DNA of 43,061 nucleotides. Source: an uncultured Pseudobdellovibrionaceae bacterium (GTDB lineage Bacteria > Bdellovibrionota > Bdellovibrionia > Bdellovibrionales > JAMPXM01). The position numbers were made by a program, and so were the translations under genes. The notes beneath the pieces were generated by a model. It did not search any database. It was given only the letters and a program-made list of their open reading frames with translations, and was not told the origin of the DNA. The stretch covers positions 1 to 43,061 of the forward strand of contig CAKQVW010000002.1 in NCBI GenBank assembly GCA_934277865.1, read 5' to 3'. Shown in pieces: positions 5,788 through 41,376 of the stretch (positions within the stretch are counted from its first letter, which is position 1; the number at the start of each line of letters is the position of its first letter).

Positions 5788-5804
5788 TGGAGGTGGTAGA
5801 GGGA
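5788..5804. repeat. attL core (displaced copy of the tRNA-Cys 3' end)
   Basis: TGGAGGTGGTAGAGGGA is identical to 41303-41319. The next ~12 bp are only partly similar (cctgcaccgtg versus ttcgcacccccgt). Confidence 0.8.
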
Positions 5805-5864: not shown

Positions 5865-5891
5865 TGTGGACCACTTGTGGACCGTTTCTCG
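5865..5891. promoter_or_regulatory. Candidate integrase arm-type binding site (tandem 11-bp TGTGGACCACT units), left arm
   Basis: TGTGGACCACTTGTGGACCGTTTCTCG matches 41113-41139 at 25 of 27 positions in direct orientation. It overlaps the perfect 16-bp palindrome GTTTCTCGCGAGAAAC (5884-5899). Confidence 0.5.
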
Positions 5892-5940: not shown

Positions 5941-7236
5941 TCATCTGGCACCGCCAAAGGACTTCTTCATGAACGCTTGCTTCACCTCGAGGCTGATCTG
6001 ACTAACGTAGACCCGCTCGTAGACATCGAGGCTCATGTCCATTATCTCACATGCAACCTTTGGTGGCCAGCCGAGTTCCGCTGTCATTGTCGCGAAGGTT
6101 TTTCGGCAATCGTGGTAACGCGCCTCGTATGGCCCGATGTCTTCGATTTTTGCGATCTCTCGCGTCCGGTACCACGTCTTTTCGAATACACCATGAGAAA
6201 GCGTCTTCGTCGGGTCATTAGGCGCCGGAAACAACCACTTTGAGTTTAGATGTTCGTTCGCCTCAATCTGGAACACGAGAGCTTCACGCGCCTCGTCGAC
6301 AAGCGGAACGTCGCGCCAGTGGTGATTCTTGAAGGACCACACCTTCAAACTCCCATTCTTGAAGTCAACTTTCGATTTCTCGAGTCTCGATAGTTCGCTG
6401 TAGCGAACGCCTCCAAGAAGCCCGATCGCCAAAAACGCGCGCGATCGCGCGGCGAGGATCTTTCTCTGGCGTGATGGCTCTGTGCCGTCAGACGTCTTTA
6501 ATATCTCTTTCCATGCATCGAGCAACCTGCGTTGCTCATCTTTAGTGTAAACTCGGCCCGCCTTTTGGTATCGAGTCGCCTTCTTGACGATCTCATCGAT
6601 GTCTTCAAGAGGAGAAATGTCCGGGAACTTTTTAAAAAAGCCGCGGTTCACACCAAATGTGAGTAGCATTTTGAGGAAGTCGAAAGTCTTCTCGAAGAGC
6701 TTGTCGCCGCGGTTCTCTAGGTACCATGCCTTGTATTGCACGATCGCGACGTCATTTACTCGGTCAGCTGTCATGTACGGCGGCCGCGGGATTGAAGTTG
6801 GATAGTGCGCGCGATCCTGTGCCAGCTCGGACGGATTCTCTGGTGGAACACCCCAGAAGCCACGAAGTCCATGCTTCCAGTTCTTTTGATAATTTCTTAT
6901 CGTGCCCGGCGACTTGCCCACAGTTTTCTCTGAGAAAAGAATCTGCCAAACAGAATCCACGCTCGGATTCGTCACGCCTGAGACATGAAGATCAAGCTCA
7001 ACACCAGTTTTCCCAGTTCGTACGCCTTCGAGATGTTCGTCGACGACACGTCTTGCGGCCGTGATGCCTTCGCAAATTCCGGTCTTCTTGTTGAGCTTCC
7101 CCTCGATACCCGTTCGGATTTTCAAGCGGCGACCATTGAATGTCGTTCTGAATACGAGCTGACCTGTGGCCGGCACGATGTACCACCCTGGATAGTTCGT
7201 AAGTCTCACGAGGTCGCGGCTTGAATCTTTACTCAT
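5941..7236 (-). CDS. int: Tyrosine integrase (phage integrase family)
   Basis: 431 aa from ATG 7236, which forms an ATGA overlap with the xis stop. Catalytic pattern R (GGVRYSEL) ... H-x-x-R (HDCRKT) ... Y (VYERVY). The gene ends 137 bp from the attL core. Confidence 0.95.
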   Translation of the reverse strand: MSKDSSRDLVRLTNYPGWYIVPATGQLVFRTTFNGRRLKIRTGIEGKLNKKTGICEGITAARRVVDEHLEGVRTGKTGVELDLHVSGVTNPSVDSVWQILFSEKTVGKSPGTIRNYQKNWKHGLRGFWGVPPENPSELAQDRAHYPTSIPRPPYMTADRVNDVAIVQYKAWYLENRGDKLFEKTFDFLKMLLTFGVNRGFFKKFPDISPLEDIDEIVKKATRYQKAGRVYTKDEQRRLLDAWKEILKTSDGTEPSRQRKILAARSRAFLAIGLLGGVRYSELSRLEKSKVDFKNGSLKVWSFKNHHWRDVPLVDEAREALVFQIEANEHLNSKWLFPAPNDPTKTLSHGVFEKTWYRTREIAKIEDIGPYEARYHDCRKTFATMTAELGWPPKVACEIMDMSLDVYERVYVSQISLEVKQAFMKKSFGGAR

Positions 7237-7439
7237 CCAGCTCTCTTCTTCTTCACCAGCTTCTTGGCGCGAAAGTGTTCCCAGTCCGACCAATAGATTC
7301 TTGTCACACCAAGATCGTATGCCGGGAGCTCACGACTATTGATCGCATCTCGAACAAATTTCGAAGCGACTCCTGCGCGCTCGCAGAGCTGGCTCACTGT
7401 CAGGCATTCGTTCTCTTGGTGATTCTTCTTTCTTGCCAC
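7233..7439 (-). CDS. xis: Excisionase / AlpA-MerR-type HTH DNA-binding protein
   Basis: 68 aa with a GTG start after a GGAGGA SD. HTH LTVSQLCERAGVASKFVRDAINSRELPAY. Translationally coupled to int. Confidence 0.8.
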   Translation of the reverse strand: MARKKNHQENECLTVSQLCERAGVASKFVRDAINSRELPAYDLGVTRIYWSDWEHFRAKKLVKKKRAG

Positions 7440-7540: not shown

Positions 7541-8140
7541 CTACTCGGTCAAACTTCTTTCAACACTCTCAGGAGATCGCTCTTCGCTTTGAGCAACAGT
7601 GCGATCTCCCGCGCACACTGAACTGCTTGTTCTGTTCTTTCGGGGACGATACGGACGTTGTCCTTGATGTCGAGAATCGAACTCATGTGAGAGTGCAATG
7701 CGCTCGCCGAGTCGTGCGCTAACTGCGCTGATTTCAACACGGCCGGCCTCAAGGTCTCGGATAAGGTTTGCGAGTCCGCGTCCAGGGTTTCTACGGAGAC
7801 GGCCTTCATAGATGTTTGCAAGACGCTTGGCGCGATTTCGACGGTAATATTCTCTTTGACGGGCGTTAATCTCATCTCGCCTCGCCGCTCGCGCCATTGC
7901 TTTTCTTCTTCGATCTCTTTCTCTGCGTTTCTCAAGATCTCGTTCATATTGCTCTCGCCCCCTCGCCCTCTCTGCGTCTGCATTCTTGTGATATTTTTCG
8001 CGCGCCTTAGCTCTCACTGCCTCAAGGTTCTCTAGGCGTCTTCTTCGTGCGCGTTCGTTTGCTCGTCGCTTTCGTTCTTCTGGAGAGATCGCCATTGCTT
8101 GTTCCGAAAAATCGGCCTGTTCTGGGTTGCTCCAGGCCAT
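7541..8140 (-). CDS. Arg/Glu-rich hypothetical protein with R-E-x-Y-x-x-N/D repeats (frame of the 3' half uncertain)
   Basis: 199-aa ORF with the repeats REKYHKN, REQYERD and REYYRRN. A second protein-like ORF (7549..7947, 132 aa) is nested in the +1 frame. Confidence 0.5.
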   Translation of the reverse strand: MAWSNPEQADFSEQAMAISPEERKRRANERARRRRLENLEAVRAKAREKYHKNADAERARGREQYERDLEKRRERDRRRKAMARAARRDEINARQREYYRRNRAKRLANIYEGRLRRNPGRGLANLIRDLEAGRVEISAVSARLGERIALSHEFDSRHQGQRPYRPRKNRTSSSVCAGDRTVAQSEERSPESVERSLTE

Positions 8141-9158: not shown

Positions 9159-9431
9159 CTAGGAGACTGCGCCCGAAACTTCTTTTGCCGGGAAAACTAC
9201 TTCAACCGGCAGATTTAGTGTCTCGGCGAGCTTTTGACGCTGGATTTTACTCGGCACCTTCCCGCGGCGTGCGCGGCCAATGGCATCAGAGGTGAGGCCG
9301 CTGGCAACTGCCAATCGGGAAAGACCATCTGGTCGGTGTTCATAGATCCAATTGTCGATCGCTTCTCGGTTTACGCTGAGTCCGTCTTCCATGGGCACAA
9401 ATAACCACGAAGTTCGTCGCCTTGTCATCAT
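9159..9431 (-). CDS. Small HTH protein, Cro-like by position (first gene of the leftward operon)
   Basis: HTH GLSRLAVASGLTSDAIGRARRG. Divergent from the cI-like gene. The start is ambiguous (ATG 9431 or ATG 9392), and neither has a clear SD. Confidence 0.65.
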   Translation of the reverse strand: MMTRRRTSWLFVPMEDGLSVNREAIDNWIYEHRPDGLSRLAVASGLTSDAIGRARRGKVPSKIQRQKLAETLNLPVEVVFPAKEVSGAVS

Positions 9432-9476: not shown

Positions 9477-9896
9477 TTGAGAAAAGCTGAGATTTCGATT
9501 GGTGAAATTATTCGCAATCGCCGAGTCCAGCTGGGGTTGACCCAGGGCGATGTTGCGACGAGTTCCGCCATTCCACTGAGGACCTACCAGGGAATCGAAA
9601 CAGGAAAGTCGGAGCCCGGCTTCGGGTCGCTTCGCGCGATTGCAAAGACGCTCAATCTCTCAACCGAAGACCTATGGGGCGAGGTCGGTCCGCCGCGAAA
9701 GGTCGCAGCCAGTGCGGTTCACGGGCCCCTCACTGCCGGCGACTGCGCCGCGATCTTGGAGCAATTGGAAAAGGTATCACCTTACAAGCGTGCACTGGCG
9801 CTGACGGTTCTGTTTGAAGATCCAACTCTATTCGATTCAGTCGATGTACCCGAAGAGCTTCCCGACTCTCTTCAAGCGCTTTTGAGAGTGCGATAA
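9477..9896 (+). CDS. cI-like repressor, XRE-family HTH
   Basis: N-terminal IGEIIRNRRVQLGLTQGDVATSSAIPLRTYQGIETGKSEP. One of only four plus-strand genes in the prophage. TTG start. No S24 peptidase motif in the C-terminal half. Confidence 0.8.
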   Translation: MRKAEISIGEIIRNRRVQLGLTQGDVATSSAIPLRTYQGIETGKSEPGFGSLRAIAKTLNLSTEDLWGEVGPPRKVAASAVHGPLTAGDCAAILEQLEKVSPYKRALALTVLFEDPTLFDSVDVPEELPDSLQALLRVR

Positions 9897-10027: not shown

Positions 10028-10615
10028 CTAAGACGCGCTATCTTTTCTCGATAGAACCGCCTGCAGCCAGTGCATCTCAGAAATAATAAGAACTCTTCCG
10101 GCCCCCTTGCGGTCTTTGTTGAGGCTCATCGCATCACGTATCTTCGTTCCATATCTGTTAGTTAGCCAATCTGGCGAGCTGTATTTACCCACTACAAGAT
10201 AGTTAAGATTCTTCACGACAGAATCCTTGATCTGCCCGCCTAACGCCTCAGTAAGGTCGTGACAAAACTGCTTAGAGCCCGCATCGAATTTCCCAGAAAA
10301 GCAGAACAGTTTTTTATCAAAGACCACATCCCTTTCATCGTCGAACTGGATCCCAAGCGGCTGACCGGCCAATCCGAAAAACTCACGCAGCTGCAGTTGA
10401 AGTCTTTTGGTCGACGCATCGTCAAAACCCCAATCTAGCGCGACCGCTAAGTGCTCACCCAATTCAGCAAATGGGAACTCATTTACAAACTCGGATCTTA
10501 CGATCTGTTCATACACATGAACCACCTGATCAATATCAAGCTTTTGTCCCCGACACAGAAGATCGAGTTGCGCGAGAAGAGCGACACGATCGCGCCTTAA
10601 ACGATTGGCTTTCAA
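10028..10615 (-). CDS. BRCT-like domain protein (195 aa) with an unassigned N-terminal domain
   Basis: The C-terminal ~95 aa fit the BRCT pattern: KLFCFSGKF...ALGGQIKDSVVKNLNYLVVG...GTKIRDA...RVLIISEMHW. TTG start 26 nt after the upstream gene. Confidence 0.75.
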   Translation of the reverse strand: MKANRLRRDRVALLAQLDLLCRGQKLDIDQVVHVYEQIVRSEFVNEFPFAELGEHLAVALDWGFDDASTKRLQLQLREFFGLAGQPLGIQFDDERDVVFDKKLFCFSGKFDAGSKQFCHDLTEALGGQIKDSVVKNLNYLVVGKYSSPDWLTNRYGTKIRDAMSLNKDRKGAGRVLIISEMHWLQAVLSRKDSAS

Positions 10616-10641
10616 AATCCCTATGGGTTCGGCCTTTTTTT

Positions 10642-11169
10642 TCAGGAGACGCCCCTTGTTGCGCTAACCGGTACGACACGGCCTTTTACCCATAGGCTAT
10701 CGATATCAACCTGCCCATCCATCGCAACCATCTTTCCCTGCTGAAGAAAACGAACGAATTCCACTTGAGTGGTTTTAAATGACATAAACGGAACGAGTTC
10801 GCTTCCAATCGCGCGCCACATAGAAAACACAACTTGGCCGTCACCATTGCTCAACTCATTACGGAAAGCTGGCGTTGCGGACTCAACACGAATCATGAAG
10901 CTTACGAATTGGAGTGCAAAACCGAACTGCATGCCTGGAGTTCTCGGCATCACGGAATCGTAGAACGTGTCGCCGGTGCGAAATGCGAACTCGGTGCCTT
11001 GGGTGATTACTGGGTAGGCTTTGCCGTTTAGCTTTCGATAGTCGAATCGAATATCTAGCGCAGGTGCGAAAACTTTTGGAACAGCGAACCGCCAGCCGTG
11101 CGCGTAACCGTTGCTATTAAAAATCGCGATCGGGATCACGGATCTTTTTGCGTTTACCAAGTTGCTCAT
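10642..11169 (-). CDS. Hypothetical 175-aa protein, first gene of the orphan two-gene cassette
   Basis: Clean ORF with an ATG start. No TM segment, signal peptide or recognisable motif. Preceded by ~220 bp of non-coding DNA. Confidence 0.7.
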   Translation of the reverse strand: MSNLVNAKRSVIPIAIFNSNGYAHGWRFAVPKVFAPALDIRFDYRKLNGKAYPVITQGTEFAFRTGDTFYDSVMPRTPGMQFGFALQFVSFMIRVESATPAFRNELSNGDGQVVFSMWRAIGSELVPFMSFKTTQVEFVRFLQQGKMVAMDGQVDIDSLWVKGRVVPVSATRGVS

Positions 11170-11388
11170 GCCATCAAGTCGGCGACCGCGTCTCGCAACT
11201 AAATTGCGCGAATGTCCCAGGTTGATAACAGGTTTAAGAATTCACAAAGTCGCGCTATCTCGAGACAAAAGCGAAGGCAGAACGCCCCGGGATGAGACCC
11301 GTCTCAAAACTGCACAAATTGTGCAATTCTGCAAATCCAACAGCCTCATCTCAAATTAGTTCTATTTGAGCCAAGAAAATTGCAGTAT

Positions 11389-11417
11389 TTGACAATCGTA
11401 ATACGGTGTCATACAAT
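11389..11417 (+). promoter_or_regulatory. Sigma70-type promoter for brnTA
   Basis: TTGACA (11389-11394), 17-nt spacer, TACAAT (11412-11417). The brnT ATG is 7 nt after the -10 element. Confidence 0.55.
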
Positions 11418-11423
11418 GGATAT

Positions 11424-11675
11424 ATGAAATTTGAATGGGACGACGTAAAGAACGACAGCAATAAGCAGAAGCACGGAATCGGCTTCGAAGACGTCCTCCC
11501 GTTGTTTGAGTCAGGCAACTACGCCATCGAGTTCGACGACGAAAACTCAACTCTTGATGAAGATAGATGGATTGCACGTGGCGCAATCTCCGGCGTTGGA
11601 CGTGTCGTAGTTGTCTTCATAGAAATCATTGATGGCGAGACAATTCGAATCATCTCTGCGAGAAAAGGTGAATAA
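11424..11675 (+). CDS. brnT: BrnT-family (DUF497) ribonuclease toxin
   Basis: MKFEWDDVKNDSNKQKHGIGFEDV ... IRIISARKGE matches the BrnT signature. The track's GTG at 11406 lies inside the promoter. Confidence 0.9.
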   Translation: MKFEWDDVKNDSNKQKHGIGFEDVLPLFESGNYAIEFDDENSTLDEDRWIARGAISGVGRVVVVFIEIIDGETIRIISARKGE

Positions 11676-11677
11676 AT

Positions 11678-11956
11678 ATGAAACTTAAAGAAGCAATGAA
11701 AGAAGCAAAGCGAACGAAGAGACCCCAACGGGTTGATGAACCGGAGCACGCCGGCGATACGAAAGTGCTTGTCTCGGCACGCCTCGATCTTGACGTTCTC
11801 AACCAGCTAAAGGCACGCGCCGAAGCGGAGAGAATTCCCTACAGCACGCTTATCAATTCGATCTTGAAGCGCCACCTTGATTTGTATCGGCTAGGGGTCG
11901 AACTCGATCTAGAGGCCCGAGTTAGCCGCCTTGAGAAAGAACTCAAGATCGGCTGA
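11678..11956 (+). CDS. brnA: BrnA-family antitoxin
   Basis: Starts 2 nt after the brnT stop. The C-terminal ...LDLDVLNQLKARAEAERIPYSTLINSILKRHL is typical of BrnA. Confidence 0.85.
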   Translation: MKLKEAMKEAKRTKRPQRVDEPEHAGDTKVLVSARLDLDVLNQLKARAEAERIPYSTLINSILKRHLDLYRLGVELDLEARVSRLEKELKIG

Positions 11957-12198: not shown

Positions 12199-12481
12199 CA
12201 GCGTAATCCCTCGAGTCGCTATCGTCTCTTTGAAGATCGATGATTTGCTGAAGCCGATCAGGCAAAGGTCGTCCTGGGTTCTGTTCCAGGTATTGTGCGA
12301 CAAGGTAGTTATTGATCAGTCGGATTTTGACGAACGCTCTTCGCCGCGATCTGCGACTCTGCGCCAATAACACCTTGGCGTAGGCGCCCATCAACCCGAT
12401 GCCGGCCGCGCCGATCGCGCCAATGATCTTAACGATGTCGTCGGCCGTGAGTCCGAAGATCGTTGCTAGCGTTTCTGTCAT
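12170..12481 (-). CDS. Single-TMD membrane protein of the lysis cassette (holin or i-spanin candidate)
   Basis: N-terminal TMD IIGAIGAAGIGLMGAYAKVLL followed by RRSRRR. Overlaps the endolysin stop. Confidence 0.6.
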   Translation of the reverse strand: MTETLATIFGLTADDIVKIIGAIGAAGIGLMGAYAKVLLAQSRRSRRRAFVKIRLINNYLVAQYLEQNPGRPLPDRLQQIIDLQRDDSDSRDYADEQAERKRD

Positions 12482-12873
12482 TCGTCCACCAATTCAAAGT
12501 GAACGAGATCCATGAACTTCTCGTCACGAAAATGAAGATCGCCATCCCAGTCGCCACCGAATCGGATCTTGATTCCGAGCTCTTCGGCAACGCGCTTCAC
12601 GTAACCTGCGAAGTGGTAGAACCGCTCTGTCTCTTCCCAGTTAACCGGATAGGGAGCCACATCGATCGCGCGCGACGGTGAGGAATTGTGTTTTCCTTCG
12701 GGCCATTTCTTCTTAGAACGTCCCAATCGAAATGCCTCGTCCTGTCCGGCTTGATCTCGGTGGCCACAGATCACCGTGTGATCGTACCCCTCGAGGACCT
12801 TTCGAAAGAGACGCTGAAGGTCCGGATGGCAAGTGGCCAATCGAGTCTCGCTCAGTGCCGAATACTTGGTCAT
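12478..12873 (-). CDS. Endolysin, peptidase M15 (VanY / D-Ala-D-Ala carboxypeptidase-like) family
   Basis: Zn-ligand pattern: GHRDQAGQDEAF, H..SPSRAIDVAP, DLVHFEL. ATG 12873 forms an ATGA overlap with the upstream stop. Confidence 0.85.
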   Translation of the reverse strand: MTKYSALSETRLATCHPDLQRLFRKVLEGYDHTVICGHRDQAGQDEAFRLGRSKKKWPEGKHNSSPSRAIDVAPYPVNWEETERFYHFAGYVKRVAEELGIKIRFGGDWDGDLHFRDEKFMDLVHFELVDE

Positions 12874-13202
12874 TTCCACACCCCACATCGGTTCAGTTTA
12901 TCGTTCAGCGCCTCTAGTTCCTCGATCGGAACACACGCCATTTTGTAGACCTGCGGTTCATCGCAGTTGATGGAGTCGCCATTGAATGCGCGGCGAAGTA
13001 CACACCGCCCGTCGACGTTCTTTACTTGATAGATCGAAGGCCGCCACATCGGCTCAGGTGCAGAGCGTCTGCTGGAGACGCAACCGATAGAAGACAGTGC
13101 GAGCATTGTGCAAAACAGAATCAGAATCGCAAACCAGAGATCACTTGGATCGCTGCTCGAATTTTTCTTCCACTCTGATCGCTGCATCGTCTCGCTCCTC
13201 AT
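12870..13202 (-). CDS. Membrane-anchored or lipoprotein-like protein of the lysis cassette (spanin or holin candidate)
   Basis: Hydrophobic segment LWFAILILFCTMLALSSIGC ending in Cys, a non-canonical lipobox. Cys-rich C-terminal part. Confidence 0.6.
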   Translation of the reverse strand: MRSETMQRSEWKKNSSSDPSDLWFAILILFCTMLALSSIGCVSSRRSAPEPMWRPSIYQVKNVDGRCVLRRAFNGDSINCDEPQVYKMACVPIEELEALNDKLNRCGVWK

Positions 13203-38389: not shown

Positions 38390-39022
38390 TTACGGGTTGC
38401 TCTCGCGCGAGCAGCGATCGCCAGTTTCTTTGTGTTTCGTTTCTGATCTCTTCTCGACCCAACTTCCTTTTTGAATCTGCGCGAGAATTAGCTCCACCGT
38501 CCCGTCGACCGTGACCAGTCCGTCGGTCTTGATCGTGAGATCAAAACGACCATGCTCTGCATAGCGATCGAGACCTGTTTCGCTAGGATGAAGTGTGTTG
38601 CTTCCCCATGAAGCCGCGCGGTTGCGGCGAACATTCTCCGCGGCCGCCAGGCGCACTCGGAGTGCGTGTGGAAATGCATCGAACTCGTTTTCGAATCGAC
38701 AGTCGCCGACGATGATCAGCGAATTTGGTTCCACCTGGTGTATCCGGTTCCGAAGGATGTTCACCCAGATCTCGCTCCCATGTACTGATCGACCCCATTC
38801 GGTGCCGAGAAGTTGTAAGAGCGTTCTATCCTTTTTAGTTTTCGGATCGATACCGTACTCGCGCAAACCATCGAGCACGCGATCGTGCAGCCCATAGAGT
38901 GCATCGGCGAAGTTCATACTGTACGCCGTCTTGAATCCCGCGCGTGCGGCCGCAAGATAGAGCTTGTTCTGTGTCGCGGTTTTTCCCGCGCCCTGCTTCC
39001 CTGAAAGTAAAACGATCGTCAC
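38390..39022 (-). CDS. P-loop kinase, deoxynucleoside-monophosphate-kinase-like
   Basis: GTG start after an AAGGAG SD. Motifs: LLSGKQGAGKT, LLQLLGTEWGR...WV, IIVGDCRFENE. Confidence 0.65.
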   Translation of the reverse strand: MTIVLLSGKQGAGKTATQNKLYLAAARAGFKTAYSMNFADALYGLHDRVLDGLREYGIDPKTKKDRTLLQLLGTEWGRSVHGSEIWVNILRNRIHQVEPNSLIIVGDCRFENEFDAFPHALRVRLAAAENVRRNRAASWGSNTLHPSETGLDRYAEHGRFDLTIKTDGLVTVDGTVELILAQIQKGSWVEKRSETKHKETGDRCSRESNP

Positions 39023-39031
39023 GTTGTCTCC

Positions 39032-39322
39032 TTACTTCGTGAGTTCGATGAATCCCCAAATGACCAACACCCAAATTCCAATAGAGATCGCGGTCGCAAT
39101 CGTGTAGGCGTACGCCACGACAATCTTTTCCGAGCGGGCAATGCGTCTCACGACCTCCTCCGGTACTTCTTCACCTCGCCGCGCTTCAATCGGTCCCGCC
39201 AAGATCTGCACACTTCCGCGTTGCACGCTTTGCATCGCGATTGGCGCTGGTCCTTCTTCCGGTAGAACTCGTCTAGCGGCTTGAACTGAAAGCAGTTCGA
39301 ACAATGTTTCATAGACCTGCAA
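39032..39322 (-). CDS. Hypothetical protein with a C-terminal TM anchor
   Basis: C-terminal hydrophobic segment IVVAYAYTIATAISIGIWVLVIWGFI. Confidence 0.5.
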   Translation of the reverse strand: MQVYETLFELLSVQAARRVLPEEGPAPIAMQSVQRGSVQILAGPIEARRGEEVPEEVVRRIARSEKIVVAYAYTIATAISIGIWVLVIWGFIELTK

Positions 39323-40100
39323 ACCCCACCTGGCTGTTTCTCTTCTTATTCTTAGTGATGAGCTCTAGTTTCTGATCGAGCTCCGCAACCAGTTCGCGAG
39401 GCTTCCTCTTCGCTGCCTTTGCGCGCGCAATCACCTCGTACCTGAGGCGGTCCTTTGCTGCTCGGACTACATCTGAAGGCGTAGAGGCGACTTTAAGGAT
39501 TTCTGAAGCTTCGATTCCAAATCGACCTTGAATGACGTTCTCTGCGATCTGCAGCAGTACCTGTCTGCCAGGGGCCGCGACTTCTGCGATCAGGTGAAAC
39601 CTACGCTGAATCGCAGGATCGATTTCGGATAACGAATTTGTGCAGGCAACGATGAGCCCTAGCGGATTCGCTCGATCGAGACCTGTGAGGATTTCGTTCA
39701 CTACACGGTTGTCGGTTTTGCTTGCGCTGTCTTCAGCTCCCCAAAACCGAGTCGCTGCGATCGAGTCAAACTCATCGAACAGAAGTACGACTCGGTTAGA
39801 TTTCGCAAAGTCGAAAATCTGTGCGACGTTCTGTTCGGATTTGCCACGGTAGCTCTCATTGATCGAAGAACCCGCAACGACCGAGATCTTGATTCCGAGG
39901 AATTCTGCCAGACCATGTGCGATTGAGGTCTTGCCACAGCCTGGTGGACCATGGAGCAAGATTTTGTTTCTGACTTGAAGCCCGTGATCTGCGAGAGCGT
40001 CACTAAACTCGAGATCTTCCAGCAGATGCCCAATGCAGACCTGCATTTCTTCAGAAAGCACCAAGTCACTAAGCTTGTGCGACGGTGCATCGACTTTCAT
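39309..40100 (-). CDS. Classical AAA+ ATPase
   Basis: Walker A LLHGPPGCGKTS, Walker B VVLLFDEFDS, second region of homology ACTN...DPAIQRRF. ATGA-coupled to the replication gene. Confidence 0.9.
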   Translation of the reverse strand: MKVDAPSHKLSDLVLSEEMQVCIGHLLEDLEFSDALADHGLQVRNKILLHGPPGCGKTSIAHGLAEFLGIKISVVAGSSINESYRGKSEQNVAQIFDFAKSNRVVLLFDEFDSIAATRFWGAEDSASKTDNRVVNEILTGLDRANPLGLIVACTNSLSEIDPAIQRRFHLIAEVAAPGRQVLLQIAENVIQGRFGIEASEILKVASTPSDVVRAAKDRLRYEVIARAKAAKRKPRELVAELDQKLELITKNKKRNSQVGFAGL

Positions 40101-41002
40101 ACGCAGACCTTCCCGCCGGTGAGGGCGCGCAAGGCGGTGCGTTGATCTTCAGGCAAATCCGTCGGCCGAACTGGTCGCCTGACAGCGGTTGTTTGCTCCG
40201 AATCTTCGATTAGCGGCGCATTAGGACCCGCAGGTGGAGGTTTTCCCTTGGTCCCGTCTTTTGGGTCCTCGAAATCGCGCCAGCGCTCTTTGCCTTCTTC
40301 ACCGACAAACGTGGACCACTTCAGGATGTACTTGCGGTCGCGGCCCTCGACGCGACATCGACTCCCGTAGTTCGACGCAGCTCGTGCAAACCTGTCGAAG
40401 TCAGCCTGGCTTCTGATGCGCTGCTTAAGTAAGGCCATACCCTCATCCTTGCCCTCCTTCCTCGGGTACCCGGCGTAAACCTTTTCAAAATTGAAGTCGG
40501 CAGCCGCCGGCTGCATGTTTGTTTGTTTGTCTGTTTGTTTGTTTGTTTGTAGTGAGACAGAGTTGAAAGTTATGGATCCGTCAGGTGAAGTTATGGATCC
40601 ATGACTTGAAGTTATGTCACCGCTCGGTAACCGCTCGGTAACCGACTGGTTACCAGTCGGTGTCGGGTGGTTACCGACTGGTAACCGATCGGTGTCATAG
40701 CTCAAAATTACGGCATCGTTTGGTTCTTTCGCGAGCTTCTCGAGTGCATCGATCATCACCTCCATTGCGACCCCAAAAGTCTTCGCAAAGTAGTCGGCTG
40801 AGAACGGGATCGTCCCTATGCCCTTTTTCGACGCGTATCCGAGCAAACAAACCCAAAACCATTTCTGCTCGATAGTTAAGCCGTGCAGTGTCTCGCTGTA
40901 CGCGATTGAATTCTCGAGACGGAACCAAGTGTGTTGTTTGCGATCTCGCCGCGGCTGATAGGTGTCCCAGTTTTTAATTGTGATCGTCGTGATCGTAGCC
41001 AT
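40097..41002 (-). CDS. Replisome organiser / replication initiator (lambda O-like architecture)
   Basis: ATG 41002 (MATITTITIKNWDTYQPRRDR..WFRLEN). Iteron arrays are embedded mid-gene. Followed by the ATPase gene. Confidence 0.75.
   Translation of the reverse strand: MATITTITIKNWDTYQPRRDRKQHTWFRLENSIAYSETLHGLTIEQKWFWVCLLGYASKKGIGTIPFSADYFAKTFGVAMEVMIDALEKLAKEPNDAVILSYDTDRLPVGNHPTPTGNQSVTERLPSGDITSSHGSITSPDGSITFNSVSLQTNKQTDKQTNMQPAAADFNFEKVYAGYPRKEGKDEGMALLKQRIRSQADFDRFARAASNYGSRCRVEGRDRKYILKWSTFVGEEGKERWRDFEDPKDGTKGKPPPAGPNAPLIEDSEQTTAVRRPVRPTDLPEDQRTALRALTGGKVCV
40516..40696. repeat. Candidate origin of replication: three adjacent iteron arrays inside the initiator gene
   Basis: (TGTT/TGTC)x9 at 40516-40551. 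Three AAGTTATG(GATCC) units at 21-bp spacing at 40567-40616. Seven ~11-bp CGNYNGGTWAC-type units at 40621-40696, including the 17-bp palindrome CGACTGGTTACCAGTCG. Confidence 0.65.
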
Positions 41003-41112
41003 AGTGATGCGCCCCCTCGCGCAAACCGTTGGTGTTTCATGATGAAAAGTTGGAGATCGGAAAAGGTGGCGGATCGCGACCTTCAGAGTGCTCAAAAATG
41101 AGCCAACGAATT

Positions 41113-41139
41113 TGTGGACCACTTGTGGACCACTTCTCG
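41113..41139. promoter_or_regulatory. Candidate integrase arm-type binding site, right arm
   Basis: TGTGGACCACTTGTGGACCACTTCTCG is a direct repeat of 5865-5891 (25 of 27 positions). Confidence 0.5.
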
Positions 41140-41302
41140 AACCCACGTTTGGAAACGAATGGGAACAAAAAGGCACAAATTGGAACAATACTCAGATGCA
41201 ATTTAGCTAGGGGAAATGGGTGATTTCTGAGGCGTTTTTTGGCTGTACTCGAACCAATTCGAGGAAAACGCTGAAACCCAATCCAATTGTATTTGAAGAT
41301 AG

Positions 41303-41319
41303 TGGAGGTGGTAGAGGGA
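41303..41319. repeat. attR core (3' end of the functional tRNA-Cys)
   Basis: Identical to 5788-5804. Covers T-loop nt 60, the T-stem 3' strand, the acceptor 3' strand, the discriminator and CCA. Confidence 0.8.
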
Positions 41320-41376
41320 TTCGCACCCCCGTACGCGGATTTGCAGTCCGCTGCCTAACTCCTCGGCCATACCACC
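41303..41376 (-). tRNA. tRNA-Cys (anticodon GCA), 74 nt with encoded CCA
   Basis: Hand fold: acceptor GGTGGTA/TACCACC, anticodon stem GCGGA/TCCGC with loop CTGCAAA, T stem GGGGG/CCCTC, discriminator U73. The T-loop reads TGCGAAT, which is unusual. Confidence 0.85.

Follow-up and report, generated by a model that had tools for sequence, protein, structure and literature searches.

Introduction

When isolated, RFC1's BRCT domain, known as its 'ligase homology region', binds DNA with a recessed 5'-phosphate with a dissociation constant of about 10 nM (PMC9293004), and the BRCT domain of the bacterial DNA ligase LigA contributes to nick joining (PMC10386641). XRCC1, a BRCT-based break-repair scaffold of eukaryotes, is reported to bind DNA and poly(ADP-ribose) (PMC6334254). 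Small BRCT proteins are also encoded by temperate phages. One such type is represented by orf2 of Vibrio phage K139 (family phrog_3989). Proteins of this type, including the 'BRCT domain-containing protein' of Pseudomonas phage Marin and the 'DNA polymerase' of Sulfurimonas phage SNW-1, carry labels that read hypothetical, 'DNA ligase', 'exonuclease' or 'DNA polymerase', and we found no assigned function for them. Here we report a two-gene prophage cassette in which a BRCT protein of this family is encoded next to a second protein, named X. The prophage is carried by a metagenomic contig of an uncultured Pseudobdellovibrionaceae bacterium (CAKQVW010000002.1), and the 43,061 nucleotides of it analysed here are called the window. 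The whole analysis was performed on sequences and by computation.

From the domains of the cassette and the genes accompanying its relatives, we propose that X and its LigA/RFC1-type BRCT partner may form a module that is directed to nicks or 5' ends and acts at the step of LigA. We hold this reading with a confidence slightly short of even. More generally, the X/BRCT family probably acts on DNA nicks or ends, and a role of the cassette in phage defence is possible.

Results

The cassette is a minus-strand unit. Its first gene, the X gene (10642-11169), has an ATG start and encodes 175 amino acids. The second, the BRCT gene (10028-10615), has a TTG start and encodes 195 amino acids. The spacer between them (10616-10641, minus strand) is 26 bp long and A-rich with AGGGA just 5' of the TTG start, and its shortness indicates a tight operon. 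Both open reading frames (ORFs) lie where the initial annotation, made from the DNA letters without database searches, had placed them. They are conserved as proteins in other genomes, and the cassette is unchanged in eight metagenomic copies of the same phage; thus both ORFs are real beyond chance. The same annotation described the pair as orphan. This holds for close homologues: indexed searches with each single protein returned self matches only, and a search of viral contigs with the single X protein returned nothing. It does not hold at the profile level, where the X family comprises at least 321 representative clusters at 50% identity (exhaustive phmmer, E≤1e-3).

The linkage of X to its partners was studied in species-representative genomes, which were scanned with a degenerate DNA pattern back-translated from the X core motif. 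This gave 50 loci, 46 of which were verified by the hidden Markov model (HMM) of X. A small BRCT partner, either adjoining on the same strand or fused, is found in 15 of the 46 verified loci and a SWIM zinc-finger partner in 17, while at least one partner is present in 33. All partners are on the same strand as X, usually overlapping it or a few tens of bp away. The spacing between X and BRCT genes in relatives ranges from a 4-nt overlap to 76 bp, and the window has its BRCT partner 26 bp downstream of X, as in this family pattern. BRCT is also the commonest Pfam domain in multi-domain members of the X family (5/148). Natural fusions occur as X-BRCT (P0013) and as BRCT-X (P0062 and P0090), and their BRCT domains belong to the [SN]xxW...YG.KI subtype of the window. 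An orthologous pair at another locus (L110) has the same gene order with a 4-nt overlap. Its X is 37% identical to that of the window and its BRCT protein 38% identical over 184 ungapped residues, which indicates that the two proteins co-diverged. In the X tree, the window protein falls in a clade whose members mostly have BRCT partners or are X-BRCT fusions. Over the tree as a whole SWIM and BRCT partners are interspersed and have been swapped repeatedly, suggesting that X is the constant core and that the partners are interchangeable DNA-targeting modules. The fusions, the recurrent same-strand adjacency, the co-diverged orthologous pair and the tree position are four independent lines that show the X and BRCT genes to be a conserved functional unit, of which the window carries the split two-gene form. 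The expectation that homologues of the two genes would co-occur as a pair is thereby borne out.

The C-terminal domain of gene 2 (10028-10330, minus strand; residues 96-195 and the stop codon) is assigned as BRCT from Pfam, NCBIfam, PDB sequence matches and alignment. Pfam BRCT (PF00533) matches residues 98-161 with 24.1 bits against a gathering cut-off of 21.3 (E=4.2e-5). The strings from which a BRCT-like C-terminus had originally been read (KLFCFSGKF, GGQIKDSV, NLNYLVVG, GTKIRDA and LIISE) are all present in the translation, and that reading is confirmed by the Pfam match and the RFC1/LigA alignment. In the PDB, the sequences that match best are those of the RFC1 BRCT (entries 2ebu, 2k6g and 2k7f), the last entry being a complex with 5'-phosphorylated DNA. 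Partial NCBIfam matches fall on the C-termini of LigA and DnaQ-BRCT models. In particular, the C-terminal BRCT of PRK06195, a DnaQ-like exonuclease-BRCT protein, is matched at model positions 219-305 of 309 (E=7.5e-5). In a multiple alignment, the [ST]-G after strand β1, the R/K at +7 and the G-x-K at the start of helix α2 are kept in all 18 partner BRCTs, in two LigA BRCTs and in RFC1. The phosphate-pocket positions of the window protein are S106-G107, K114 (+7) and G-T-K158, and their equivalence to T415, G416, R423 and K458 of RFC1 follows our own numbering on the aligned sequence. At the sequence level, the BRCT of gene 2 falls into the LigA/RFC1 type, the DNA-binding 5'-phosphate class, and its BRCT fold is predicted from the alignment to the RFC1 and LigA domains. 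A subtype-specific 9-residue insertion (SSPDWLTNRY) is found after strand β3, with the pattern [SN]xxW....[YF]G.

The N-terminal domain of gene 2 (10331-10615, minus strand; residues 1-95) is assigned as a helical repeat from phrog_3989 and alignments. The phrog_3989 match spans residues 45-188 (E=2.2e-23). This family without known function includes K139 orf2, and the N-domain of the window protein is homologous to those of K139 orf2-like proteins. It is a degenerate version of the helical repeat 'L.G..GI.ADG...E..L', which is weakly TerB/DUF533-like: TerB (PF05099) and DUF533 each match three of ten related N-domains, with E of about 0.05-0.08. The window N-domain itself has no TerB or DUF533 match and no ADG motif, and a PDB profile search gave no match. 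Some gene callers begin the protein at a GTG (10516-10518, minus strand) preceded by AGGTGG, giving a form of 162 residues, but this is probably not the true start. We accept the 195-residue form because its first 33 residues align with conserved helix-repeat positions in relatives. They also align without gaps with the L110 orthologue, which starts at an ATG and whose alignment with gene 2 begins at residue 5.

Protein X has no Pfam, NCBIfam or PADLOC match, consistent with the earlier statement that it contains no placeable motif. Its PHROG matches are weak and to families of unknown function. Members of the X family are mostly stand-alone proteins of 150-200 residues. The window protein matches the family HMM over residues 5-156 (E=5.3e-47) and has all near-invariant positions of the pattern R..W..F..LD...TQG..F..G...Q..F...L..G. 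The signature in the family alignment (A1) consists of R9, W26, the invariant D39, T56-Q57-G58, G66, Q135, F138, L142 and G145. An AlphaFold2 model of X calculated from A1 is mostly β, with a predicted local distance difference test (pLDDT) score of 91.3 and a predicted template-modelling score (pTM) of 0.85. Its comparison with the PDB gave no significant fold match (best E=0.55, template-modelling score 0.23), and the sole match in BFVD is another X-family member. A fold search of this kind had been suggested as a check by the initial annotation. As judged from the model, X is an uncharacterised domain family with a new fold, undescribed in the resources searched. Database labels of its members read 'hypothetical' or, for fusions, 'BRCT domain-containing protein', and no description was found of X, of its fold or of its partnership with BRCT, SWIM or LigA. 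Reading of the sequences revealed no transmembrane segment in X and no membrane component in either protein, although no transmembrane predictor was run.

Some assignments concerning X were tried and rejected. A glycosyltransferase identity would be based on the sole PDB profile match with A1, which is insignificant (E=0.04). The UDPGT match of PY3_2, a protein of phage PY3, is below the cut-off. The 1047-residue repeat protein P0005 matched X residues 40-84 alone, in 13 stretches, and was excluded from the family as a repeat-driven artefact. Separately, one X homologue (L027, 832-1641) has, in the loop that precedes the WTQG motif, a Cys-rich insertion of about 70 residues in which CxxC motifs are numerous; this X loop therefore tolerates a zinc-ribbon-like insert.

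A protein of about 670 residues adjoins X in 7 of the 46 verified loci. Four of these proteins are Pfam-confirmed complete NAD-dependent ligases, with the adenylation, OB, Zn, HhH and BRCT domains of a full LigA adjoining or overlapping X (L018, L040, L044 and L054). The other three (L046, L048 and L061) are assigned as LigA by size and C-terminal BRCT. Overlaps of a few bases between ligA and X are frequent and point to translational coupling. On a long contig sampled independently (L107), the order is ligA, X, SWIM between secDF and bamA, and a syntenic contig (L106) shows this layout too, although its ligase is split between two gene calls. The ligA of this lineage is plainly the housekeeping ligase. 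At least six arrangements are observed, namely SWIM-X-LigA, LigA-X-exonuclease/BRCT, X-BRCT-LigA, LigA-X-BRCT, LigA-X and LigA-X-SWIM, and the lineages that could be named are Desulfobulbaceae, four lineages of Verrucomicrobiota and Chitinivibrionales. On the premise that about 4 of 3000 genes count as adjacent to ligA, we estimate a chance of about 1e-8 for even five independent adjacencies among 46 loci. In L044 and L061 the BRCT partner of X is an RNase_T domain (DnaQ-like 3'-5' exonuclease) followed by BRCT. The strongest genomic association is thus with a housekeeping LigA and a DnaQ-like exonuclease-BRCT protein, which points to the metabolism of DNA nicks or ends rather than to a classical pairing of a sensor with a toxic effector. 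No accessory factor of the X kind was found for bacterial LigA in the literature searched. The ligA adjacency is a property of part of the X family and is absent at the window locus.

These ligase operons could also be read as those of a pro-repair or fitness moron. Here the pair would assist the sealing or processing of single-strand breaks with no antagonism, for example by recruiting LigA to cos nicks or by countering nicking nucleases of the host defence. Such a role is the most direct reading of ligA-X operons that continue with a DnaQ-like exonuclease-BRCT or a SWIM gene in a core context. It also accords with the 5'-phosphate pocket kept in the BRCT and with the analogy to eukaryotic BRCT-based scaffolds such as XRCC1 (PMC6334254). 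However, it leaves unexplained the consistent placement in lysogeny operons of temperate phages as well as the patchy distribution and fast evolution of the family. X has no enzyme signature, and the family is lacking in many bacteria, including the complete genomes of E. coli, where megablast with the enterobacterial fusion gene gave no match. We therefore regard a purely pro-repair role as improbable.

The wider surroundings of X bear on the proposal of the initial annotation that the cassette is a sensor-plus-effector pair. Around X and its partner, the genes of the sampled loci are heterogeneous and mostly housekeeping, and no family recurs more than twice in a Pfam scan. There is no consistent defence-island signal, and matches to defence models are scattered. 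An integrase and an XRE gene were each found near X at only one of the sampled loci, with seeds of limited sensitivity. In a prophage anti-phage defence or abortive-infection pair, the BRCT would sense DNA ends or a nucleotide-derived ligand and X would be the toxic effector. The accessory low-GC position beside a toxin-antitoxin pair and a repressor fits such a function, as does the location of relatives in lysogeny operons beside the known exclusion gene glo (K139) and a RES-domain protein (Escherichia phage Cartapus). Patchy distribution, fast divergence, compact two-gene modules and swaps among SWIM, BRCT and WYL-like partners are hallmarks of conflict systems. In addition, WYL domains are known to sense ligands in defence systems and to occur fused with BRCT and TerB (PMC4012209). 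Against this, neither protein has a match in PADLOC-DB v2 at E≤0.1, the neighbours of the sampled modules are mostly housekeeping, and a toxic effector would not typically be coupled in translation to a housekeeping ligA among core genes, as X is. X bears no nuclease, NADase, pore or kinase signature. Full-text literature searches returned neither an anti-phage system based on BRCT nor a study of what these phage BRCT genes do. A defence pair with a toxic X thus appears unlikely. Of the original proposal, the functional unit stands, and so does the statement that the cassette is no named defence system, but its toxic-effector side is weakened by the ligA operons, the missing effector signature and the absence of a PADLOC match. 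Homologues had also been expected in prophage accessory regions or defence islands; several temperate phages do carry them in lysogeny modules beside repressors, whereas the defence-island part found no consistent signal among the mostly housekeeping neighbours.

A subset of X modules and related BRCT proteins resides on temperate phages, nearly always in the lysogeny region, and X modules lie downstream of repressors in at least six temperate-phage lineages. In Vibrio phage K139 the order cI-orf2(BRCT)-glo-int is transcribed from the lysogenic promoter. Pseudomonas phage Marin has CI-BRCT, and both of these phages carry the BRCT gene without X; Mannheimia phage PHL101 has CI-BRCT. X is present in the uncultured phage UFOVP1367 (CI-X), in Pseudoalteromonas phage PY3 (int, WYL-like...X fusion, repressor), in an IMG/VR contig (X-BRCT...integrase) and in the prophage-like locus L111 (CI-X-SWIM...ParE...serine recombinase). 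A WYL-like-BRCT-X protein of 397 residues is encoded between C and int in P2-like prophages of Yersinia proxima and in a second enterobacterial prophage. Among cultured P2-like phages it is common to find the WYL-like-BRCT unit on its own, with no X. The repressors beside X modules are short and contain the HTH domain only (window 139, UFOVP1367 117, L111 122, L067 122 and L071 142 residues). Long CI-like repressors are found beside the BRCT-only relatives (K139 215, Marin 275 and PHL101 228 residues).

The position next to such repressors invites a further explanation, a DNA-damage sensor for the lysis-lysogeny switch. The pair would detect nicks or gaps and, like an antirepressor, inactivate or by-pass the short non-cleavable repressor independently of RecA-mediated self-cleavage. 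In favour of it, the repressors beside X modules (117-142 residues) all need an accessory induction route, the X module is typically the first gene after the repressor, and BRCT and WYL domains are typical of damage-response proteins. Furthermore, a 2026 preprint based on genomics only proposes that, in Roseobacter prophages, BRCT modules take the place of quorum-sensing modules and act as regulators responsive to damage (PMC13345283). Yet most sampled family members have no prophage signature, integrase or XRE being seen at one locus each, and the copies in ligA operons have no repressor to act on. The BRCT-only relatives of K139, Marin and PHL101 adjoin long CI-like repressors. The window cassette itself is outside the repressor operon, and its operator-like palindrome TGCACAAATTGTGCA is absent from the cI/cro region. 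A damage-sensing switch is in our view a distinctly weak candidate.

Other features of these phage loci were observed. The SWIM partner of L111 (1497-2078) carries two SWIM motifs and, at its N-terminus, a CxxC...CxxC motif resembling a zinc ribbon, unlike the chromosomal SWIM partners with one SWIM motif and a coiled-coil tail. In the P2-like Yersinia prophages with the BRCT-X fusion (L067 and L068, 1941-3590), a fusion of a reverse transcriptase (RVT_1) and a trypsin domain (Trypsin) is encoded between the portal and replication genes. The same slot holds unrelated cargo in L069 and L070, e.g. a DUF2971 protein, so that it looks like a variable accessory or defence hotspot. In phage Cartapus, gp33 (L074, 1511-2716), a 'putative RES protein, NAD+ binding domain' of toxin type, lies directly upstream of the WYL-like-BRCT gene gp32 between int and ogr. 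The matching slot of phage MLG42 is empty.

Upstream of the cassette there is a non-coding region, as the initial annotation noted, but it measures 236 bp (11170-11405) rather than about 220 bp. It is common to the cassette and the divergent brnT gene and is a candidate promoter/operator region. A sigma-70-like promoter candidate of the cassette (11326-11354, minus strand) consists of TTGAGA, a 17-nt spacer and CAGAAT. It is proposed from its consensus match (9/12 positions), and such sites are not more numerous in the region than in shuffled sequence. Directly downstream of the candidate -10 element lies the perfect 15-bp palindrome TGCACAAATTGTGCA (11311-11325), which is operator-like and unique in the window, with no second copy at up to two mismatches. 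A shared operator was sought between the cassette promoter and the cI/cro intergenic region, and none was found. A near-consensus promoter for brnTA (TTGACA, 17 nt, TACAAT) is located at 11389-11417, and a partial second copy of the palindrome half-site AATTGCA at 11378-11391. The divergent cassette and brnTA units may share regulation.

The neighbours of the cassette are those that the initial annotation had described. Directly upstream, brnT (11406-11675, plus strand; Pfam BrnT_toxin, E=4.5e-18) and brnA (11678-11956, plus strand; BrnA_antitoxin, E=3.2e-8) both score above the Pfam cut-off. They are a type II toxin-antitoxin pair, which lies outside the cassette and is of interest as context only. 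Beyond them is the late operon, including the endolysin gene (12478-12888, PHROG 465). On the other side, the cI-like gene (9477-9896, plus strand) is convergent with the cassette and encodes an HTH_3 protein of 139 residues with no room for an S24 peptidase domain; induction of the prophage thus presumably needs an antirepressor or another route. A Cro/excisionase-like gene (9159-9431, minus strand) diverges from it, with 45 bp between the two. Over 10-12 kb the GC content is 0.49 versus about 0.53 for the prophage, which fits acquired cargo. With this low GC, the location beside brnTA and the repressor and the defined prophage around it, the cassette does occupy the accessory position that had been ascribed to it.

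The prophage extends over about 35.5 kb (5788-41319) at a tRNA-Cys gene and is bounded by att repeats. The 17-bp direct repeat TGGAGGTGGTAGAGGGA is present at 5788-5804 and 41303-41319, and its second copy is the 3' end of tRNA-Cys (41303-41376, minus strand); these copies define attL and attR. The integrase gene (5941-7293) is at the prophage end distal to the intact tRNA-Cys. Just inside both ends there is a 19-bp direct repeat, TGTGGACCACTTGTGGACC (5865-5883 and 41113-41131), itself an internal tandem of TGTGGACC, and it may be an integrase arm-type or accessory-factor site flanking attP. The minus strand carries the genes for head, tail and lysis; the replication genes are near 40-41 kb. 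At this far end (38390-41188, minus strand) the genes encode a deoxynucleoside-monophosphate-kinase-like protein (PHROG 139), an AAA ATPase (PHROG 3757) and a replication initiator (PHROG 270), which in the circular form come after int and attP on the same strand. Two long ORFs that overlap in different frames (7541-8140 and 7549-7983, both minus strand) lie between the early genes and int. One of them encodes 199 residues, is extremely rich in Arg and Glu, and has no database matches.

The same prophage with an identical cassette occurs in another metagenome (L001). Beyond int, that copy is followed by SpoIIE and hydrolase genes, whereas the window and L002 have genes for an HTH protein, a Glyoxalase_8 protein and a protein of 1232 residues. 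The differing flanks suggest different host strains or integration contexts. Among 28 viral contigs with a related endolysin, no further shared synteny, no X and no BRCT gene were found, and the cI-like protein has no relatives among viral contigs. No ligase was noted among the window proteins examined, and a scan of all window ORFs with the X and BRCT HMMs revealed no other BRCT-bearing protein.

Discussion

The proposed mechanism of the cassette can be outlined as follows. The BRCT protein would dock on DNA termini that bear a 5'-phosphate, for example at nicks or gaps, at recessed ends or where cos ends have annealed, and would bring X to the DNA end as a complex. There the pair would act at the step of the host NAD-dependent ligase LigA. 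In other genomes, the role of the partner would be taken by a SWIM zinc-finger protein or by the C-terminal BRCT of LigA itself. The prophage copy would be accessory cargo with its own operator-controlled promoter. As a biological role we prefer one in which the pair, within the lysogen, sits on DNA ends and nicks or keeps watch over them. Most likely it would thereby hinder incoming DNA of rivals from being sealed or circularised. Such exclusion fits the position in the lysogeny region and the patchy, fast-evolving distribution. A report of DNA breaks to the lysis-lysogeny switch, or help in nick repair, would be close alternatives.

Several observations weigh against an end-directed module of this kind. 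No ligA adjoins the cassette in the window. X has no recognisable catalytic, DNA-binding or effector motif, only one invariant Asp, and the isoelectric point of the family is not consistently basic (median 7.8). The repeated swaps between SWIM and BRCT mean that X has no strict need for a BRCT partner, and AlphaFold2 of the fusion P0013 models X well but the BRCT half poorly (pLDDT 40-57, pTM 0.60). For the BRCT itself, a cryo-electron microscopy study of RFC doubts the 5'-phosphate binding mode deduced from the isolated domain (PMC9293004). The cassette is convergent with cI and is not co-transcribed with it as in most phage relatives. Finally, the choice between blocking and helping ligation is purely inferred, and exclusion fits poorly with an X gene in a housekeeping ligase operon.

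A broader formulation is conceivable, though we are more doubtful of it than of the end-directed module itself. X with BRCT or SWIM could be an unrecognised bacterial module that recognises single-strand breaks or 5'-phosphorylated ends and works with LigA. In prokaryotes it would correspond to break repair scaffolded by BRCT domains, with a protein fold for which no relative is known. Temperate phages of many lineages (P2-like phages, K139-like phages and the phage of the window) would repeatedly have taken it up into their lysogeny regions for exclusion or damage signalling. If this is true, a sizeable family, comprising at least 321 clusters at 50% identity and having a fold without a match, partners the essential bacterial DNA ligase as well as BRCT and SWIM DNA-targeting modules. 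It would also give an entry to the BRCT genes, for which we found no assigned function, beside the repressors of Vibrio phages K139 and Kappa, of P2-like phages of Yersinia, Escherichia, Burkholderia and Mannheimia, and of Pseudomonas phages. Two kinds of relatives are tractable by experiment, the WYL-like-BRCT-X fusions of Yersinia prophages and, in V. cholerae, the orf2 of K139. Ligation-blocking exclusion or nick-sensing induction, if true, would in either case be a new mechanism.

Comparison with described systems

The proteins of the K139 orf2 type resemble gene 2 in their match to phrog_3989. They share with it the helical N-domain repeat and the BRCT subtype with the [SN]xxW...YG.KI insertion, and their genes are likewise in the lysogeny or immunity region. 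Unlike the window, these phages have no X gene. In them the BRCT gene comes after cI within one operon; that of the window follows X and converges on cI. The BRCT domains of LigA and RFC1 have sequence similarity to gene 2 and in common with it the [ST]-G, the R/K at +7 and the G-x-K, and in relatives X is encoded directly after the C-terminal BRCT of LigA. Gene 2 differs from LigA in having no ligase, OB or HhH domain and in the 9-residue insertion of its BRCT. The DnaQ-like exonuclease-BRCT protein PRK06195, labelled 'DNA polymerase III subunit epsilon', has a similar C-terminal BRCT and the architecture of the X partners of L044 and L061. In gene 2 its exonuclease is replaced by the helical, weakly TerB-like N-domain.

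The rexAB genes of phage lambda, to which the position of the cassette had been likened, likewise make up an accessory unit of two genes in a temperate phage's immunity region. The two units resemble each other neither in sequence nor by profile, however, and the cassette has no assigned membrane component and is not co-transcribed with cI. Unlike RexAB, the X family is mostly chromosomal and ligase-linked. The WYL-like-BRCT proteins of P2-like phages (Cartapus gp32, MLG42, PHL101 ORF34, Burkholderia vB_FUB5a and Vibrio PV94) are comparable as small BRCT proteins of the lysogeny or accessory region, and this unit is fused to X in the Yersinia and second enterobacterial prophages. Their BRCT is without the insertion, their N-domain is WYL-like and not a helical repeat, and the cultured phages have no X. 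With type II toxin-antitoxin modules the cassette is compatible in architecture, as a tight two-gene operon with a palindrome at its candidate promoter, but it has no match to toxin or antitoxin families in Pfam and PADLOC.

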